Positions 6,019 to 61,494 of a DNA stretch of 64,000 nt are shown in pieces. The position numbers and the translations under genes were made by a program. The stretch comes from an uncultured Bacilli bacterium. GTDB lineage: Bacteria > Bacillota_I > Bacilli_A > RF39 > UBA660. The stretch's first letter is position 1. Each line of letters opens with the position of its first letter. The stretch spans positions 6,968-70,967 of the forward strand of contig CANRDN010000005.1 of the NCBI GenBank assembly GCA_947629375.1, given 5' to 3'. The notes under the pieces are model-generated. The model worked only from the letters and a program-made list of their open reading frames with translations. It was not told the DNA's origin and ran no database searches.

Positions 6019-7503
6019 ATGGAAAGAGAATTTACTGAACAAGAATTAGTAAGGCGTGAAAAGGCCAAAAATATTCGTGAAATGGGAATGGATCCTTTCG
6101 GACATAAATTTGAACGCGATTCATTTGCTGCGGATATAAAAGATAAATATAAAGATGTTCCACATGACGATTTTGAAAATATGACTGATACTGCTACTGT
6201 TGCTGGAAGAATTATGTTTATTCGAAAAATGGGTAAAGCATCTTTCTTTACAATAAACGATAAGACTGGAGATATCCAAATATATATATCTATAAATGAT
6301 GTCGGTGAAGAAAAATACGAATTGTTTAAGTCTGCTGATATTGGTGATATCGTTGGAGTTTCTGGTAAAGTTATGAAAACAAGAACAGGAGAAGTTACAA
6401 TTAAATGTTTAGAATATACGCATTTAGTTAAAGCTTTAAAACCACTACCTGAAAAGTTCCACGGTCTTACAGATATCGAAGAGCGTTATAGAAGACGCTA
6501 TGTCGATTTGATAATGAATGAAGACTCAAGACGTGTTGCCTTTATGCGTCCTAAGATTATTAGATGTATTCAAAACTTTATGGATAATAGAGGATTCACA
6601 GAAGTTGAAACACCAGTTTTAACTACACTTTTAACAGGTGCTAGTGCAAGACCTTTTGTAACTCATCATAATACTCAAGATATCGATATGTACTTAAGAA
6701 TTGCTCTAGAACTTCCTTTAAAAAGACTTTTAGTAGGTGGTATGGAAGCCGTTTACGAAATAGGAAGAGTATTTAGAAATGAAGGAATGGATCCAAAACA
6801 TAATCCGGAATTTACTTTGATGGAAGCATATCTTGCTTATAGTGACCTTGAAGGAATGATGGATATGACTGAAGCAATGTATACAACCATTGCTAAAGAT
6901 GTAGTAGGTAAAATGACTTACAACTGGTGTGGTAACGAAATAAACCTTGAAGGACCTTGGAAGAGAATTAGTATGACTGATGCTATAAAGGAAAAGACAG
7001 GAATAGACTTCAAGAAAGAAATGACTTTGGATGAAGCCTTAAAACTTTGTGAAGAGCATCACATTCCAGTAGAAGAACACCAAAAGAGTCTTGGTCATAT
7101 AATTAACTTATTCTTTGAAAAGTATGTTGAAGAAACACTTATTCAACCAACATTCTTATATGGGCATCCAGTAGAAATAAGTCCTTTAACTAAGAAGAAT
7201 AAAGATGATCCAAGATTTGTCGATAGATTTGAATTATTTATCGGCGGAAAAGAATTTGCTAATGCTTACACAGAATTAAATGATCCAACTGATCAATTAG
7301 AAAGATTTGAAGAACAATTAAAAGAAAGAGATAAAGGAAATGAAGAAGCAAATGATATCGATATGGACTTTATCGAAGCATTAGAGTATGGAATGCCTCC
7401 AGCAGGTGGAATAGGTTATGGAATCGATAGACTTGTGATGTTATTTACTGAACAAGAAACGATAAGAGAAGTAATATTATTCCCAACAATGAAACAAAAA
7501 TAG
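6019..7503 (+). CDS. lysS: lysine--tRNA ligase (class II)
   Basis: 494 aa with an OB-fold N-terminus and class II motifs. FRNEG and GGIGYGIDRLVML are canonical LysRS signatures. Confidence 0.95.
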   Translation: MEREFTEQELVRREKAKNIREMGMDPFGHKFERDSFAADIKDKYKDVPHDDFENMTDTATVAGRIMFIRKMGKASFFTINDKTGDIQIYISINDVGEEKYELFKSADIGDIVGVSGKVMKTRTGEVTIKCLEYTHLVKALKPLPEKFHGLTDIEERYRRRYVDLIMNEDSRRVAFMRPKIIRCIQNFMDNRGFTEVETPVLTTLLTGASARPFVTHHNTQDIDMYLRIALELPLKRLLVGGMEAVYEIGRVFRNEGMDPKHNPEFTLMEAYLAYSDLEGMMDMTEAMYTTIAKDVVGKMTYNWCGNEINLEGPWKRISMTDAIKEKTGIDFKKEMTLDEALKLCEEHHIPVEEHQKSLGHIINLFFEKYVEETLIQPTFLYGHPVEISPLTKKNKDDPRFVDRFELFIGGKEFANAYTELNDPTDQLERFEEQLKERDKGNEEANDIDMDFIEALEYGMPPAGGIGYGIDRLVMLFTEQETIREVILFPTMKQK

Positions 7504-7601
7504 AAAGTATGGTTTACATATTTTCTTTTTCTTTTTGCAAATTAAATTCAATAGAAGTTTAAAATGTGTTAAGATATTTCTATAATGTGAGGATGACTAT
7601 A

Positions 7602-8576
7602 ATGAGAAAAGTTTCTATTGTTTTATCTTTTGTAGGTGTATGCTTAATAGCATTCGGTATTTATTCGTATACTGATTCTAACAATGAAAATAAGGAAGAA
7701 GTTTCTTTTAATCCTGAAGTTCATAAAGATGTAACAGAAGAAGACAAAAAAAATATTTTAAACTATTTAAATGTCAAATATGGTGAAGGATTTAAAGTAG
7801 TTGAGCATACTACTAAATATTGTTTATCTAAAGAAGATGGTAATTATGTAGTCGATAAAACTTGTGAAAAAAAGCATATAGTAAATAATATCTATAAAGT
7901 GCAAGATAGTGATGATATAACATTTTATGTAAAGAATGTTACTTTTCCTAATGATGAAAACTACGAAGAATACTTTAATAACTCTTATTATGATAACTAT
8001 GTTACTTTTAATGTAACAAAAAAAGTTGAAGAATCACTTACTCCTTTATTTAAAGAATTAGGTGATGTTAAAGAAATAGAAATCTATGATGGAATAGGAG
8101 TAGAATATCCTCAGTTTGAAAAAGTAAACGATGATTATAAATATTATATAATGTTTTCTAATTTAAATAAAAATAGTCAAGATATTGTCAATAAAGATAT
8201 GGAAATAACTGATTATATAAATAGAATTTATACTTTGGATTATTCAAATAAAGTGAAATTATATGTTAAATATGATCTTGATATTAATTCTCAAAACTTT
8301 AAAGAAATTGTTAATAACTTAAAAAACGGTAATTTCCTTAATTTAAATTATGGATTAGAAGCAGATTCAATTATATTAGAGTTTAACAATAATATATATT
8401 TAAAATATAATCAGGGATTTACTTTTGAACTTTTAAAGTATGATAAAAATCTACTTGAAGAAGATGGAACTTTAGTATATGATAAAAAAATAACTTTGGA
8501 TTTTTCTGATACAGAAGAAGGTAGTATTTTCTTTGATGATTTTATGAATCTTGAAAGTATAGATCTTAAGTTATAA
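7602..8576 (+). CDS. membrane-anchored hypothetical protein (N-terminal TM helix, Asn/Tyr-rich extracytoplasmic region)
   Basis: ATG at 7602 is preceded by GTGAGGATGA. The ORF-track start at 7566 uses an upstream alternative start. Confidence 0.45.
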   Translation: MRKVSIVLSFVGVCLIAFGIYSYTDSNNENKEEVSFNPEVHKDVTEEDKKNILNYLNVKYGEGFKVVEHTTKYCLSKEDGNYVVDKTCEKKHIVNNIYKVQDSDDITFYVKNVTFPNDENYEEYFNNSYYDNYVTFNVTKKVEESLTPLFKELGDVKEIEIYDGIGVEYPQFEKVNDDYKYYIMFSNLNKNSQDIVNKDMEITDYINRIYTLDYSNKVKLYVKYDLDINSQNFKEIVNNLKNGNFLNLNYGLEADSIILEFNNNIYLKYNQGFTFELLKYDKNLLEEDGTLVYDKKITLDFSDTEEGSIFFDDFMNLESIDLKL

Positions 8577-13778: not shown

Positions 13779-13784
13779 AATTTA

Positions 13785-13816
13785 TTGTGATAAAATTGTG
13801 TTATCGTATGATAGAA
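13785..13816 (+). promoter_or_regulatory. promoter region carrying the shared motif TTGTGATAAAATTGTG, followed by TATGAT
   Basis: The 16-nt motif is identical to the sites at 51643 and 52219. A -10-like TATGAT lies 16 nt after the first TTGTGA. Confidence 0.45.
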
Positions 13817-13829
13817 AGTAGGAAATAAG

Positions 13830-14585
13830 ATGAGATGTAGTTATTGTGGAAAAGAATTACCAAACGGAGTAAATTTTTGCGATGGATGTGGTGCAAAGTT
13901 AGAAGTACCACAAATGATGCCTAATCAAAATGAAATGCCAAATTATAACAATCAAAATATGGGTTATTATAATCAAAATAATCAAAATCCAATGTATCAA
14001 AATAATTATCAACCACCAAAAAAGAATACTGGACTTATATTTTTAATTGTTGTTCTTGCTGTTATTTTGATAGTTGCAATTGCTGTTGGAGCCTTCTTCT
14101 TACTAAGTGGTGATGATAAAGAAAAAACAGATGATGATCCTGAAGTAGTAGAAAAAGAAGACGATGATGATAACAATAAAACAGAAACATTAGATACTGG
14201 AAGTTATATTTTAACACTTCCAAAAGGTTATAGTGTAAGTCAACAGTCAACAAATGGAAGTTTAATTTCAAGTAAAGAATGTACAATGTATGTAATGGAA
14301 TATCCATTGTCAACAAGTTATATGGTTGTTCTTAAGGATGAATTTATTGCTCAAATGGGAGAACAAGGATATGTAATTACTTCCTTTAAAGAAGATACAA
14401 TTTTAAATCGTGATGTTATAATTATGGAAACTACTCAAAATGGAGTTAAATGTGTACTTTTATTCGTTGATGTAGATGATCATGATACAATGTTCTTTGT
14501 TATCGCTTCATCAACGGGATTATCAATCGATACTGATTGGTACGAAGATGCAGTTACTATGGTAAAAAGTGCTAAAGAAAAATAA
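13830..14585 (+). CDS. zinc-ribbon membrane protein with an N/Q/Y/P-rich low-complexity linker, one TM helix, an acidic stretch and an extracytoplasmic domain
   Basis: CxxC..CxxC at the N-terminus (MRCSYCGKELPNGVNFCDGCGAKL). An NQ-rich segment, a TM helix (LIFLIVVLAVILIVAIAVGAFFLL), then a D/E-rich region. Confidence 0.6.
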   Translation: MRCSYCGKELPNGVNFCDGCGAKLEVPQMMPNQNEMPNYNNQNMGYYNQNNQNPMYQNNYQPPKKNTGLIFLIVVLAVILIVAIAVGAFFLLSGDDKEKTDDDPEVVEKEDDDDNNKTETLDTGSYILTLPKGYSVSQQSTNGSLISSKECTMYVMEYPLSTSYMVVLKDEFIAQMGEQGYVITSFKEDTILNRDVIIMETTQNGVKCVLLFVDVDDHDTMFFVIASSTGLSIDTDWYEDAVTMVKSAKEK

Positions 14586-33759: not shown

Positions 33760-33895
33760 TAAGTGTATAAATGTGATGACCGAGGTGGAAACTCGAGAGC
33801 AATATGTAATTAAGATTCTTCTTGAATGAAGTAGGGTGGAACAGCGTCATAGTACGCCCCTACAAAAGGAAGAATCTTTTTAATTTTTAGGAGGA
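33760..33895 (+). promoter_or_regulatory. probable T-box riboswitch leader for glyS (minimal glyQS-type)
   Basis: AGTAGGGTGGAACAGCG resembles the T-box consensus AAUUAGGGUGGNACCGCG. Complementary GTAGGG ... CCCCTAC segments lie upstream of a Gly-tRNA synthetase gene. Confidence 0.45.
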
Positions 33896-33901
33896 ATAAA
33901 T

Positions 33902-35272
33902 ATGGAAGAAATAACAATGGAAAAACTAGTTAATTATTGCAAACAATATGGATTTATATTCCAAGGTAGTGAAATATATGGAGGACTTGCTAACACTTGG
34001 GATTATGGACCACTAGGAAGTAGGTTAAAAAACAATATTAAAGATGCTTGGAGAAAAAAGTTCATCCAAGAAAGAAAAAATGCTTATGAATTAGATGCCG
34101 ATATTCTAATGCATCCAAGAGTTTGGGAAGCATCAGGCCACGTTGGAAGCTTTAGTGACCCACTAATCGATTGCAAAGAATGTAAAACTCGTCATAGAGC
34201 TGATAACTTAATAGAAAACTTTGATAGTAATGCTCATCCAGATTCAATGACAGATGATGAAATGGTAAAGTTTATAAATGATAACAAGGTTCCTTGTCCA
34301 AATTGTGGTGCATCTAATTTCACAGGAATCCGTGAATTTAACTTAATGTTTGAAACTCATAGAGGAGTTATCAAAGATAATAAAAGTGTCGTATACTTAA
34401 GGCCAGAAAATGCTCAAGGTGAATATGTTAACTTTCAAAATGTTTTAAGAAGTCAAAGAACAAAGTTACCTTTTAGTATTGGACAAATTGGTAAAGCCTT
34501 TAGAAATGAAATAACACCAGGAAACTTTACTTTTAGAACAATCGAGTTTGAGCAGATGGAATATCAAACATTTTGCAAAAAAGGTGAAGATGAAGAGCTA
34601 TATGAATACTTTAAAGATTTTGGTAAAAAGTTTTTTATGTCTCTTGGATTACCAGAAGATAAATTAAGATTCCACGACCACGAAAAACTTGCTCACTATG
34701 CTAAAACTGCCTGTGACATAGAATACTTATTCCCATTTGGATGGGGCGAGATAAATGGAACTCACAATAGAACTGATTTTGATTTAACTCGTCATCAAGA
34801 ATATAGTGGTGAGTCTCAAGAATACTTTGATCAAGATGCTAAAGAGAAATATATTCCATATATTATCGAATCAACTTATGGACTTGATAGAACAGTTCTT
34901 GCTGTATTGTTTAACAGTTATAGAGTAGAACAACTTGAAAATGGTGAAGAAAGAGAAGTACTTGGAATTCATCCATATCTTGCACCTTACAAAGTAGTAG
35001 TACTTCCACTTATAAAAAAATATCATAGTGAAAAAGCAGAAGAAATATACGAAAAACTTTCTAAACACTTTATGACAGATTATGATGATTCTGGAAATAT
35101 TGGAAAGCGTTATAGAAGAGCAGATGTAATTGGAACACCTTTTGCAGTAACAATCGATGATAACACATTAAATGAAAATACTGTTACTATAAGAGATAGA
35201 GATACAATGGAACAAGTAACAGTAAATGTTAATGATTTGGAAAAATATATCGAAGAAAGAATTAAGTTTTAA
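33902..35272 (+). CDS. glyS: glycine--tRNA ligase (alpha2 homodimeric type)
   Basis: 456 aa with class II motifs. RBS AGGAGGA. Confidence 0.9.
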   Translation: MEEITMEKLVNYCKQYGFIFQGSEIYGGLANTWDYGPLGSRLKNNIKDAWRKKFIQERKNAYELDADILMHPRVWEASGHVGSFSDPLIDCKECKTRHRADNLIENFDSNAHPDSMTDDEMVKFINDNKVPCPNCGASNFTGIREFNLMFETHRGVIKDNKSVVYLRPENAQGEYVNFQNVLRSQRTKLPFSIGQIGKAFRNEITPGNFTFRTIEFEQMEYQTFCKKGEDEELYEYFKDFGKKFFMSLGLPEDKLRFHDHEKLAHYAKTACDIEYLFPFGWGEINGTHNRTDFDLTRHQEYSGESQEYFDQDAKEKYIPYIIESTYGLDRTVLAVLFNSYRVEQLENGEEREVLGIHPYLAPYKVVVLPLIKKYHSEKAEEIYEKLSKHFMTDYDDSGNIGKRYRRADVIGTPFAVTIDDNTLNENTVTIRDRDTMEQVTVNVNDLEKYIEERIKF

Positions 35273-51607: not shown

Positions 51608-51640
51608 TTAGTATCTTTTTTTGTTGTCCATTTTTTTGAA

Positions 51641-51682
51641 ATGTGATAAAATTGTGATAGCAAGATATTCTTGTGAATATAA
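51641..51682 (+). promoter_or_regulatory. promoter/operator region with the motif ATGTGATAAAATTGTGATAGCAAGATATTCTTGTGAATATAAT
   Basis: Nearly identical over about 45 nt to the site at 52217-52261. Shares 15 of 16 nt with the 13785 site, which carries TTGTGATAAAATTGTG. Ends in a TATAAT -10 about 18 nt before the ATG. Confidence 0.45.
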
Positions 51683-51700
51683 TAGAAAAGGAGTGAAAAG

Positions 51701-52147
51701 ATGAAAAACTTTAAATTATACGCAATTTTAAGTCTATGTTTTGGAATGCTATTTTTAACAGGTTGTGGTGGAGGAGATACACCAACTGTTACTTGTAGTA
51801 TGGAAGAAAATGGTCAAAAAGCTACATTTAAAATTACATATGATAAAGAAGAAAAAAATCCTCAAAGCGTTGAAATGACTGTTAGTGTTGAAATACCAGA
51901 TGGAACTTCAAAAGAAGATATCGAAAACGCTAAAGAAGCAGTAGAAGTTATGTATTGTTCAAACGACGATATAAAATGTAATGTTAAGCAAAATGGTAAT
52001 AGTCTTGATATAACTCTAGCTGGAGATCTTGATGACTTAGTTGATGCTGGAATGTTACAATTTGATGAAGATGAAGATTCTTCTTTAGAAGCACTTTTAA
52101 AAGAAGCTGAAGAAGAGGGTGCTAAATGTACAAAGAGTTACGAGTAG
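51701..52147 (+). CDS. small lipoprotein (paralogue family A1), four conserved Cys
   Basis: Lipobox LTGC at residues 19-22. About 55% identical to the 52278 gene product. Confidence 0.7.
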   Translation: MKNFKLYAILSLCFGMLFLTGCGGGDTPTVTCSMEENGQKATFKITYDKEEKNPQSVEMTVSVEIPDGTSKEDIENAKEAVEVMYCSNDDIKCNVKQNGNSLDITLAGDLDDLVDAGMLQFDEDEDSSLEALLKEAEEEGAKCTKSYE

Positions 52148-52177
52148 TAGCTCTTTTTTATTAAAATACACGTTAAA

Positions 52178-52201
52178 AGACCTTTTAGTGGGTCTTTTTT
52201 G
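52178..52201 (+). terminator. rho-independent terminator
   Basis: AGACC-TTTTAGTG-GGTCT followed by T6. Confidence 0.5.
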
Positions 52202-52216
52202 TTGAACAAACTTTTT

Positions 52217-52261
52217 TATTGTGATAAAATTGTGATAGCAAGATATTTTTGTGAATATTAT
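52217..52261 (+). promoter_or_regulatory. duplicate of the 51641 promoter/operator (TTGTGATAAAATTGTGATAGCAAGATATTTTTGTGAATATTAT)
   Basis: Direct sequence comparison with 51641-51682. Confidence 0.45.
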
Positions 52262-52277
52262 GAAAGGGAGAAGGAAA

Positions 52278-52718
52278 ATGAAAAATATTAAATTGTATGC
52301 TATTTTAGGACTTTGTTTTGGAACACTTTTTCTAACAGCTTGTGGTGGAGGAGATAGTAAACAAACTCTTACTTGTAGCCTAGAAGAAGATGGTCAAAAG
52401 ACAAAATATGAAGTATCTTATGATGAGGATGGAAAAGAACCTCAAGATTATTCATTAGTTATAAGTACTGAAATACCTGAAGGAACTTCAGAAGAAGAAA
52501 TTGAAAGTGCTAAATCACTAATGGAATCAATGCTTTGTTCAAATGAAGAAATGAAGTGTACTGTTAAACAAAATGGTGACAGTCTTGATGTAACACTTTC
52601 TGGAAATTTCAAAGATTTACTTGAGTCAGGATCATTAGACATTGAAGAAGAAAATCCTACTATTGACGAGCTTAAAAAAGAACTTGAAGATAGTGGAGCA
52701 ACTTGTAAGAAGAGTTAA
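52278..52718 (+). CDS. small lipoprotein (paralogue family A2)
   Basis: ATG at 52278 after GGGAGAAGGAAA; the ORF-track start at 52251 lies inside the promoter. Lipobox LTAC at residues 17-20. Paralogue of 51701. Confidence 0.7.
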   Translation: MKNIKLYAILGLCFGTLFLTACGGGDSKQTLTCSLEEDGQKTKYEVSYDEDGKEPQDYSLVISTEIPEGTSEEEIESAKSLMESMLCSNEEMKCTVKQNGDSLDVTLSGNFKDLLESGSLDIEEENPTIDELKKELEDSGATCKKS

Positions 52719-52802
52719 TAACTCTTTTTTTCTTCAATTTGTAATAAATGTGCTATTATATTTGTGTAATAATCTTTTAAAGATTAGAAATAGGAGTTTA
52801 AA

Positions 52803-53216
52803 ATGAATAAGTTAAAAATATTTATGATTATGATTCTTTGTCTTGGCGTTTTTTACCTTACTGGATGTACATCTAATGAGAATGAAATAAAGTGTAAAAT
52901 CAATGAAGAATATGAAGATAAAACGATGGAAACTGAAGTTAAAGCAACGATGAAAGATGACAAGATAAATAAAATTACAGCAACATTAACTTTTGATAGT
53001 GACAATACGGCAGTATCTTACTATAATCTTTTTAAGTCCTATGAAGAATTATCAAATGACGAAGAGAAAATAGAAGCAAAACTAGATGGTAAAGTTGTAA
53101 CTATAGAAAATTTTGATAATTATTTGAAAAAAAGTCAAAATGCTGATTTAATTGGTAAAGATAAAGATGAATTTATAAAAATGATGGAAAGTATGCAATA
53201 TAAATGTGAAAAATAA
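52803..53216 (+). CDS. small lipoprotein (paralogue family B1)
   Basis: Lipobox LTGC. Shares DEFIK.(M/L)...(Q/N)..(Y/F)KCE with the 53862 product. Confidence 0.65.
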   Translation: MNKLKIFMIMILCLGVFYLTGCTSNENEIKCKINEEYEDKTMETEVKATMKDDKINKITATLTFDSDNTAVSYYNLFKSYEELSNDEEKIEAKLDGKVVTIENFDNYLKKSQNADLIGKDKDEFIKMMESMQYKCEK

Positions 53217-53237
53217 ATTTTATTCTTAAAGGTGGTG

Positions 53238-53858
53238 ATGCTTACGAACTATCAAATAGAACTTGATAAAGTACTAAAGGAATTAACTTTAAAAAATGAA
53301 AAACCAAAGCTTTTGTTGCACGTTTGTTGTGCTCCTTGTTCTAGTTATGTTCTAGAGTATTTAACTAAATATTTTGATATAACTGTATTTTATTACAATC
53401 CCAATATTTCAAGTAAAGAGGAATACGATAAAAGATACAATGAAGAAAAAAGATTCGTAACAGAATATCCTTTTCCTTATGAAATTAAAGTTATAAATGG
53501 TAAGTATGATAATAATCTTTTTGAAAGTACGATTAAAGGTCTTGAAAACGAAAAAGAGGGTGGGAAAAGATGCTTCAAGTGTTACAGGTTGAGACTTGAA
53601 GAAAGTGCTAAATACGCTAAAGAAAATAACTTTGATTATTTTACAACTACTCTTACGATAAGTCCTTATAAAAACTCACAGGTATTAAATGAAATAGGAC
53701 ACGAATTATCTGAAAAATATGATATAAAATATTTGTATTCCGACTTTAAGAAGAAAAATGGCTATAAAAGAAGTATAGAACTATCCCATATTTATAACTT
53801 GTATCGACAAGACTTTTGCGGCTGTGTTTACTCGGTTAGAAATAAAATAGGAGATTAA
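53238..53858 (+). CDS. queH: epoxyqueuosine reductase QueH (DUF208)
   Basis: LLLHVCCAPCSSYVLEYL and CFKCYRLRLE Cys motifs characteristic of QueH. ATG at 53238 after AAAGGTGGTG. Confidence 0.7.
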   Translation: MLTNYQIELDKVLKELTLKNEKPKLLLHVCCAPCSSYVLEYLTKYFDITVFYYNPNISSKEEYDKRYNEEKRFVTEYPFPYEIKVINGKYDNNLFESTIKGLENEKEGGKRCFKCYRLRLEESAKYAKENNFDYFTTTLTISPYKNSQVLNEIGHELSEKYDIKYLYSDFKKKNGYKRSIELSHIYNLYRQDFCGCVYSVRNKIGD

Positions 53859-53861
53859 TCT

Positions 53862-54272
53862 ATGAAGAAATATTTAATTTTATTACTTCTCTTAGTCCCT
53901 TTTCTTACTGGATGTTTTTCTAGTGCTAATGAAGTTATCTGCACTGTCGTCGAAGAAAATGAAGGAAGTTCTTTAAAACTTCAAGTTATCGGTTTTTTGG
54001 ATGATAATGATATAGTGGAAGATATTTCTGCAACTATGGAAGCAGATACTGTAGAGGTTGCAAATCAACTTTATCTTTACTTAGATCTTGCAAACTACTC
54101 TTTAGGAGAGGATGAAAAACTAGACATAGAATTAAAGGGAAAAACAATATACATAAATAACTATGGGAAGATGTTAGAAGCAGGAAACTCATTAAATAAA
54201 ATGACAGGGATAAAGAAAGATGAATTTATAAAAAAACTTAAACAATCTAATAGTTCTTTTAAATGTGAATAA
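53862..54272 (+). CDS. small lipoprotein (paralogue family B2)
   Basis: Lipobox LTGC. Starts 4 nt after the queH stop. Paralogue of 52803. Confidence 0.65.
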   Translation: MKKYLILLLLLVPFLTGCFSSANEVICTVVEENEGSSLKLQVIGFLDDNDIVEDISATMEADTVEVANQLYLYLDLANYSLGEDEKLDIELKGKTIYINNYGKMLEAGNSLNKMTGIKKDEFIKKLKQSNSSFKCE

Positions 54273-61231: not shown

Positions 61232-61494
61232 TTGACACTCATTTAAAAAAAGATTTGCAAAAACTATTTATTAAATTAAGTTTGTATGTTATATTAATAT
61301 TGTCTAATAGAAAAAGAGTTTTTTATAAAACCGACTAAGTAACGATACGGGAGTTCGGATCAGAAACTGGTGTTGAATGCTCATCTAAATATTTTTGAGA
61401 ATCCTAAAGGTTTCGTATGGACACCCACCTGCAATAAGCGGGTTTTATCGTACTCGATTCTTTAGACATTTTTTTTTGCATTAAAGGAGGGTTT

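Follow-up and report, generated by a model that had tools for sequence, protein, structure and literature searches.

Here we present evidence that a 16-nt sequence, TTGTGATAAAATTGTG, standing ahead of three genes in a 64,000-nt stretch of DNA (the window) from an uncultured bacterium, is probably the core (about -18 to -3) of an ordinary extended -10 promoter of the sigma-A/sigma-70 type. The source genome is a low-GC Bacillota with peptidoglycan genes, known from metagenome assemblies only, with a glycyl-tRNA synthetase that shares about 57% identity with the enzyme of a "Bacillales" rumen MAG. The window has a GC content of 28.9% and carries almost all of its genes on the + strand. In the reading that we favor, the resemblance of the motif to a pair of regulator half-sites would come from the 11-nt length of the extended -10 unit itself, behind which a second, decayed unit would lie head-to-tail.

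A search of the window returned the exact 16-mer on the + strand at 13785-13800 and 52219-52234, and the recurrence reported by the first-pass annotation is thus real. A third copy, on the same strand, has the single mismatch described for it (ATGTG...), and its position is 51641-51656, 2 nt away from the 51643-51658 originally given. All three copies are intergenic, have the same strand as the gene 3' of each, and stand ahead of the start codons at 13830, 51701 and 52278, which upholds the promoter association that had been proposed. The features of the three sites, all on the + strand, are as follows.

13785-13800, + strand: motif of site 1, ahead of the Zn-ribbon membrane protein gene.
13786-13789 and 13791-13796, + strand: candidate promoter P1 of site 1, TRTG, one base and TAAAAT, a fit to TRTGnTAWAAT with TGCGATATAAT at the same place in a syntenic orthologue (L007).
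13797-13807, + strand: second unit of site 1, TGTGTTATCGT, decayed and extended -10-like, beginning 33 nt before the ATG.
13807-13823, + strand: third TRTGWTA unit of site 1, TATGATA, merging into the extended Shine-Dalgarno sequence ATAGAAAGTAGGA.
13830-14585, + strand: Zn-ribbon membrane protein gene; N-terminal zinc ribbon (PF13240), Q/N-rich linker, one transmembrane helix and a PsbP/DcrB-like ectodomain.
51624-51629, + strand: -35-like TTGTCC of site 2, 17 nt 5' of TAAAAT (promoter scan).
51641-51656, + strand: motif of site 2, ahead of lipoprotein gene A.
51641-51659, + strand: ATGTGATAAAATTGTGATA of site 2, with TRTG at 51642-45, TAAAAT at 51647-52 and a second TGTGATA at 51653-59.
51642-51683, + strand: 42-nt block, copy A, with the palindrome CAAGA-TAT-TCTTG, and with TGTGAATATAAT, whose TATAAT (51678-51683) marks a candidate promoter P2 (promoter scan).
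51701-52147, + strand: lipoprotein gene A, 148 aa, lipobox LTGC, YehR-like fold.
52202-52207, + strand: -35-like TTGAAC of site 3, 17 nt 5' of TAAAAT (promoter scan).
52219-52234, + strand: motif of site 3, ahead of lipoprotein gene B.
52219-52237, + strand: TTGTGATAAAATTGTGATA of site 3, with TRTG at 52220-23, TAAAAT at 52225-30 and a second TGTGATA at 52231-37.
52220-52261, + strand: 42-nt block, copy B, with a candidate P2 -10 hexamer TATTAT at 52256-52261.
52278-52718, + strand: lipoprotein gene B, with 55% identity to A; 146 aa counted from the ATG at 52278.

Bases 1-12 of the motif read T-TGTG-A-TAAAAT and fit the extended -10 consensus of Firmicutes and Mollicutes, TRTGnTAWAAT, a type known from B. 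subtilis, S. pneumoniae and Mollicutes (PMC5036317, PMC5138195, PMC12641261). The string TGTG-A-TAAAAT begins at 13786, 51642 and 52220, with TRTG one base 5' of the -10 hexamer. The motif had been placed beside or overlapping a -10-like hexamer; it actually contains the -10 TAAAAT, preceded by the TRTG "-16" element. TAAAAT agrees with TATAAT in 5/6 positions at the three sites, is flagged by the promoter scan together with its TG at sites 2 and 3, and ends 33, 48 and 47 nt from the start codon at sites 1, 2 and 3, respectively. The next seven bases, TGTG(A/T)TA, span the customary 6-nt gap and terminate in an A located 7 nt past the hexamer at every site. By the 6-nt hexamer-to-start spacing rule (PMC5138195), the predicted transcription starts are the A residues at 13803, 51659 and 52237. 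In S. pneumoniae, TRTGNTATAAT stands 6-8 nt upstream of mapped starts (PMC5036317), and the TRTG element is common in Firmicutes (PMC12641261).

The same class of element dominates the window and has a strong strand and position bias there: TRTGNTAWAAT was counted eight times on the + strand, with no instance on the opposite one, and in seven cases it stands directly 5' of a + strand gene; the looser form TRTGnTAnnnT is present in about 14 of the roughly 40 intergenic regions. Other promoters of the window likewise close the gap with A-T-purine, a -2/-1/+1 preference, so the second repeat unit stands out by its TGTG alone, the "ATA" at its end being generic. As a side observation, extended -10 elements finish only 17-26 nt ahead of many start codons (for example 29985, 43552 and 54950), and the leaders of those genes are predicted to be about 10-20 nt long, starting at or just before the Shine-Dalgarno sequence.

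At the three sites, TGTG would serve as the Gram-positive "-16" TRTG, separated by one base from TAAAAT as the -10 hexamer; TGTG(A/T)T would then be the 6-nt gap and the following A the start. RNA polymerase holoenzyme would contact the TRTG with region 3.0 of sigma and the hexamer with region 2.4, with little or no contact needed at -35. Extended -10 promoters can do without a -35 element. The -35-like sequences are TTGTCC at site 2 and TTGAAC at site 3, both ahead of lipoprotein genes, and no better than TTTCTT at the Zn-ribbon gene (site 1). Both lipoprotein paralogs retain the TTG of the -35-like hexamer at the same spacing, and the spacer between has diverged.

The direct repeat itself was found as it had been described, with half-sites one helical turn apart: TGTGATA-AAAT-TGTG(A/T)TA is present at all three sites with a period of 11 nt. 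Its recurrence was also considered improbable by chance, and three matches to TTGTGATAAAATTGTG with up to two mismatches were indeed found in the window against 0.23 expected, a count reached by none of 100 dinucleotide shuffles. A shuffle is, however, the wrong null for a promoter, and a promoter-consensus model, that is, a position model from the other TRTG-type promoters of the window, was used instead; its results are given below with the question of coincidence.

Comparison with relatives of the Zn-ribbon gene separates the two halves of the repeat. The syntenic orthologue L007 (54% identity) has TGCGATATAAT-TGTGACA at the matching place, where the TG has been lost (TGCG) and the hexamer is now a perfect TATAAT. 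The same picture emerged when the window and L007 were compared at a control promoter, that between rluD and an ABC transporter gene: TATGATACAAT is conserved together with the 10 nt behind it, and the sequence 5' of it has diverged. Nine more distant promoters of the family were also compared (two each from L010 and L011, and L137-L141), the last five being the low-GC relatives usable from a metagenome scan that returned mostly unrelated proteins sharing just the 25-residue zinc ribbon. All nine have a single extended -10 element, which starts 34-38 nt before the start codon and is followed, 4-6 nt past its end, by the family-specific ribosome-binding sequence ATAGAAAGTAGG; a second TGTG unit was found in none of the nine. 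An extended -10 or -10 element is kept in every related promoter recovered (11 of the Zn-ribbon family and two of lipoprotein homologues), and ten of them, nine Zn-ribbon and one lipoprotein (L132b), lack the second TGTG unit. In the window, ATAGAAAGTAGG is unique, at 13811-13822; it is conserved in the Zn-ribbon family of several genomes and has one U-C mismatch to canonical anti-SD pairing. The ectodomain of the Zn-ribbon protein (residues ~120-251, AF2 pLDDT 75-93) gave Foldseek matches to PsbP (2xb3, E 1.8e-4), Tsi3, SciW/EagT6 and DcrB folds.

The window leader has its second unit, TGTGTTATCGT, at 33 nt and, as an extra copy, the consensus unit, TGTGATAAAAT, at 44 nt; 10 nt after the second comes a third TRTGWTA unit, TATGATA. 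By position, TGTGTTATCGT appears to occupy the place of the relatives' single element, which we take as the ancestral one. A tandem duplication of about 10-11 nt in this lineage would account for the leader, because the second unit sits where the Zn-ribbon relatives have their sole -10 element; whichever unit is the original, the leader would have gained about 10-11 nt in this way, and both the direction and the history of the duplication are inferred from these positions. Tandem -10-like units occur at 13786/13797/13807, 51642/51653 and 7565/7576. The last of these had been taken, at about 7567, for a weaker relative of the motif; it is instead a separate extended -10 element, TGTGTTAAGAT, at 7565-7575, with TATAAT 11 nt later and then the ribosome-binding site, and holds no copy of the motif. 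Viewed on its own, the stretch 7565-7586 ahead of the gene at 7602 has TGTGTTAAGAT and, exactly 11 nt on, ATTTCTATAAT, two -10-like hexamers one turn apart.

The two lipoprotein sites had been explained by gene duplication, and the genes are indeed paralogs; duplication by itself is an incomplete account, as the proteins are 55% identical, yet a 42-nt block that includes the motif is identical at 40/42 positions between the copies, set against a third-codon-position identity of 63% (P ~1e-6 to 1e-4). The block is bordered on both sides by diverged sequence. Because the paralogs are old, as their amino acid identity indicates, such identity needs selection or gene conversion. Gene conversion was considered and is unlikely, given the diverged flanks on both sides and the retention of the first 26 nt in another species. 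Constraint on the block is therefore clear, and the block exceeds what a core promoter needs; it also holds two or three -10-like units.

Three lipoprotein homologues were compared. One in another species and at another locus (L133, 41% identity) has TTGTGATAAAATTATGATAAGAAGAT, identical to site 3 at 23/26 positions, and retains the second unit as TATGATA, with TGTG changed to TATG. In another (L132b, 47% identity), ATGATAAAAT alone is present, with the ribosome-binding site immediately behind it. The third (L136) lies 16 nt behind another family member and lacks a promoter of its own. A two-sequence alignment search found no relatives of the lipoproteins in JGI metagenomes. Only five clusters of the family of the A/B pair turned up among 5.8 billion proteins; the pair has no Pfam match, and its AF2 model (pLDDT 74.8) matches the YehR-like structures 2mvb and 2joe. 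Four small lipoprotein genes lie around queH, at 51701-54272, in two pairs: 51701-52147 and 52278-52718 are 55% identical, and 52803-53216 and 53862-54272 are 33% identical.

Outside the source species, a scan of one genome per species (185,579 species) with the 15-mer TGTGATAAAATTGTG gave at least 120 matches. Those listed include single matches in scattered, unrelated taxa, about 16 that are ilvD codons (CDKIVPG), and seven in a repeat family of Nitrospirota and Deltaproteobacteria. Five of 113 occurrences among the matches listed have a perfect TTGACA 16-18 nt 5' of TAAAAT, compared with none at control offsets. The genes 3' of the 15-mer are unrelated among the matches listed: sepF and, judged by their N-termini, cspA-like, yebC-like, pyrophosphatase-like and MATE-like genes. 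The full 18-mer was found, among the same matches, in two low-GC genomes, before sepF in L092 and before a gene for a membrane-anchored polysaccharide deacetylase in L078. In the latter locus (OW818670.1, reverse strand, from a genome of 29% GC; motif at 6715 of the reverse-complemented locus), TGTGATAAAATTGTGATAGGAAGTAGGAA comes immediately behind a terminator and ahead of the PdaC-like deacetylase gene. When 10 nt (13801-13810) are removed from site 1, its promoter-leader and that of L078 are identical at 28/29 positions, of which the search had imposed only 15. The Nitrospirota and Deltaproteobacteria MAGs (L026, L032, L053, L054, L096, L117 and L124) share TGTGATAAAATTGTGAT(A/G/T), mostly with GAA next and then repeated ATAGAATAGA-like units; this sequence resembles one terminus of an element that is repeated and possibly mobile, and it is unrelated to the window. 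An origin of the window sites as the end of a mobile element was rejected, with neither a transposase nor a target duplication nearby.

Among the alternatives, the one that survives best, although we regard it as unlikely, is that the direct repeat is an operator for a tandem-binding factor. The likeliest factor would be of the OmpR/PhoB family, WalR-like with a lineage-specific G at position 4, and its site, overlapping the -10 element and the start, would serve to repress a small set of cell-envelope genes, here those for the Zn-ribbon/PsbP-like protein and the YehR-like lipoproteins. In layout, the repeat is the same as the WalR/VicR boxes, TGTWAHA-N4-TGTWAHA, and the PhoB boxes, CTGTCATA-W-A-W-CTGTCACA (PMC4168254), but G stands at position 4 in 6/6 half-sites where W is required (TGTWAH, PMC4168254). 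With one mismatch, the WalR consensus already has 522 intergenic matches in C. difficile (PMC9210968), so that a two-mismatch match carries no weight. The products downstream are all envelope proteins and the related module of L078 precedes a PdaC-like membrane deacetylase; against this, L092 has the same 18-mer before sepF, which encodes a cytoplasmic protein. TGTG at -6..-3 occurs in no other TRTG promoter of the window, yet it is found in two independent gene families, a recurrence above chance expectation, and the second unit survives as TATGATA in L133. In the relatives, however, the TGT core is broken (TGC in L007, TAT in L133) and the second half-site is missing from ten promoters (L010, L011, L137-L141 and L132b).

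Further sites would also be expected of a regulon. The first-pass annotation had proposed a genome-wide mismatch search, and a search for TRTGWTA-N4-TRTGWTA in 79.5 kb of the genome gave no copies beyond the three: with one mismatch allowed, no other is present in the window (12/100 shuffles reach three matches at that tolerance), nor is there one in 15.5 kb of additional flanking DNA of this species. Additionally, tblastn with an approximate WalR query found no response regulator gene in the window. The suggestion of a common regulator site, or of a regulon of surface proteins, is not borne out: of the two halves, the -10 half alone is conserved throughout the related promoters, no repeat copies beyond the three occur in the 79.5 kb, and the same 15-18-mer precedes unrelated genes in other Firmicutes. 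That suggestion was to be given up if the motif proved to be simply the -35/-10 of a common sigma factor. What was found, TRTG plus TAAAAT, comes close to this, with some conservation beyond the generic consensus.

A fuller version of the operator reading is more doubtful again. In it, the 19-mer TGTGATA-AAAT-TGTG(A/T)TA, perhaps reaching ATAGNAAG at +1..+8, would be the operator of a small envelope regulon in one uncultured low-GC Bacillota lineage, bound by a WalR/PhoB-like response regulator whose half-site has G at position 4. By sitting on the -10 element and the start, the factor would shut off otherwise strong promoters, and its targets would be the PsbP/DcrB-like protein, the YehR-like lipoproteins and, in a related genome, the PdaC-like deacetylase. 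We infer that no regulator is bound at these sites. Either a regulator or a promoter-leader module of shared descent nevertheless keeps a modest probability, owing to the TGTG at -6..-3, the 42-nt block, the 20-nt match between sites 1 and 3, and the match to L078.

That 20-nt match bears also on pure coincidence, in which two strong promoters would have come to be identical in an AT-rich genome where 11-12 of the 16 positions are fixed by consensus. Under the promoter null, the probability that two independent promoters are identical across 16 nt is about 1.9e-4, which predicts about eight identical 16-nt pairs in a genome with some 300 such promoters; moreover, the finding was picked post hoc out of a scan of many windows. 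Within this window, however, only 0.01-0.04 such pairs are expected, and sites 1 and 3 have 20 exact bases in common (13781-13800 = 52215-52234), more than first noted and less expected in one window than a 16-nt match is. At site 1 the second unit also coincides exactly with the ancestral -10 position, and L133 has retained this unit; both observations point to duplication or selection rather than chance. Coincidence is, in our judgment, improbable.

Least credible by far is an RNA element of the 5'-UTR, such as a hairpin or a protein- or sRNA-binding site: conservation between the paralogs does run to about +25, and a C-to-T change in CAAGA-TAT-TCTTG preserves a G-U pair, but the leaders fold no better than shuffles (z = -1.2, -1.6, -0.4 and 0.0), the predicted structures differ between the paralogs, the hairpin arm is absent in L133, and the bulk of the 16-mer lies upstream of the predicted start and would hence be untranscribed. 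There is no Rfam match at the motif sites. A sigma-dependent promoter-proximal pause at the second unit was also rejected, as the hexamers there (TAGCAA, TAAGAA and CATAGA) are without the critical last T. Elsewhere in the window, Rfam identifies a 6S RNA (RF00013, 56.5 bits, E 1.5e-8) at 61298-61472 on the + strand. A region at 33767-33864 (+) contains the T-box-like sequence GGGTGGAACAGCG, with a weak match of 24.6 bits compared with a gathering score of 93, and the glycyl-tRNA synthetase gene lies downstream at 33902-35272; this may be a short, divergent glyQS T-box.

If the housekeeping promoter reading holds, the finding is an ordinary one: an uncultured Bacillota of about 29% GC relies on TRTG extended -10 promoters very close to the ribosome-binding site. 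It carries a caution for motif searches in AT-rich Gram-positive genomes, namely that a promoter-consensus null is preferable to shuffles. Two lesser points deserve mention: short tandem duplications of the 11-nt -10 unit can mimic response-regulator boxes, and between the old lipoprotein paralogs one promoter block is under strong constraint. Only with a regulator bound would the sites define a small envelope regulon in a lineage without genetics.

Among known systems, the Rex operator, TTGTGAA-N4-TTCACAA, and the CRP/FNR operator, TGTGA-N6-TCACA, share the TTGTGA or TGTGA half-site with the window; both are inverted repeats, whereas the window units are direct, and they were rejected for want of a TCACA arm at the sites. 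Compared by consensus, the boxes of Fur/PerR/Zur, TnrA/GlnR, ArgR, CtsR and B. subtilis PhoP, and the ResD box TTGTGAAN3TTTN4A, fail in orientation or sequence, and the DnaA box (TGTGNATAA) has two mismatches. The WalR/VicR (TGTWAH-N5-TGTWAH) and PhoB Pho boxes (CTGTCATAWAWCTGTCAYA) are closer, consisting likewise of two 7-nt TGT direct repeats with a 4-nt A/T spacer and an 11-bp period, located at envelope-protein genes. They differ in having W (WalR) or C (PhoB) at position 4 rather than G; also, the first half-site and spacer in the window are fully explained by the -10 element, related sites do not preserve the TGT core, and the second repeat is missing in most related promoters. Tandem or overlapping promoters arising from short duplications resemble the window sites in their two to three -10-like units 10-11 nt apart, one near consensus and the rest decayed, with the difference that duplication is deduced here from positional comparison with relatives alone. 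The closest likeness is to the TRTGnTATAAT "-16 region" promoters of B. subtilis, S. pneumoniae and Mollicutes. Although the window sites carry a second, decayed unit 11 nt downstream and head-to-tail, have TGTG at -6..-3 instead of the usual T/A-rich bases, and have starts that are predicted, they share with this Gram-positive class the TRTG, the one-base gap, the TAWAAT hexamer and the predicted 6-nt gap and purine start, together with a -35 element that may be weak or dispensable and, in this window, frequent occurrence on the gene strand.
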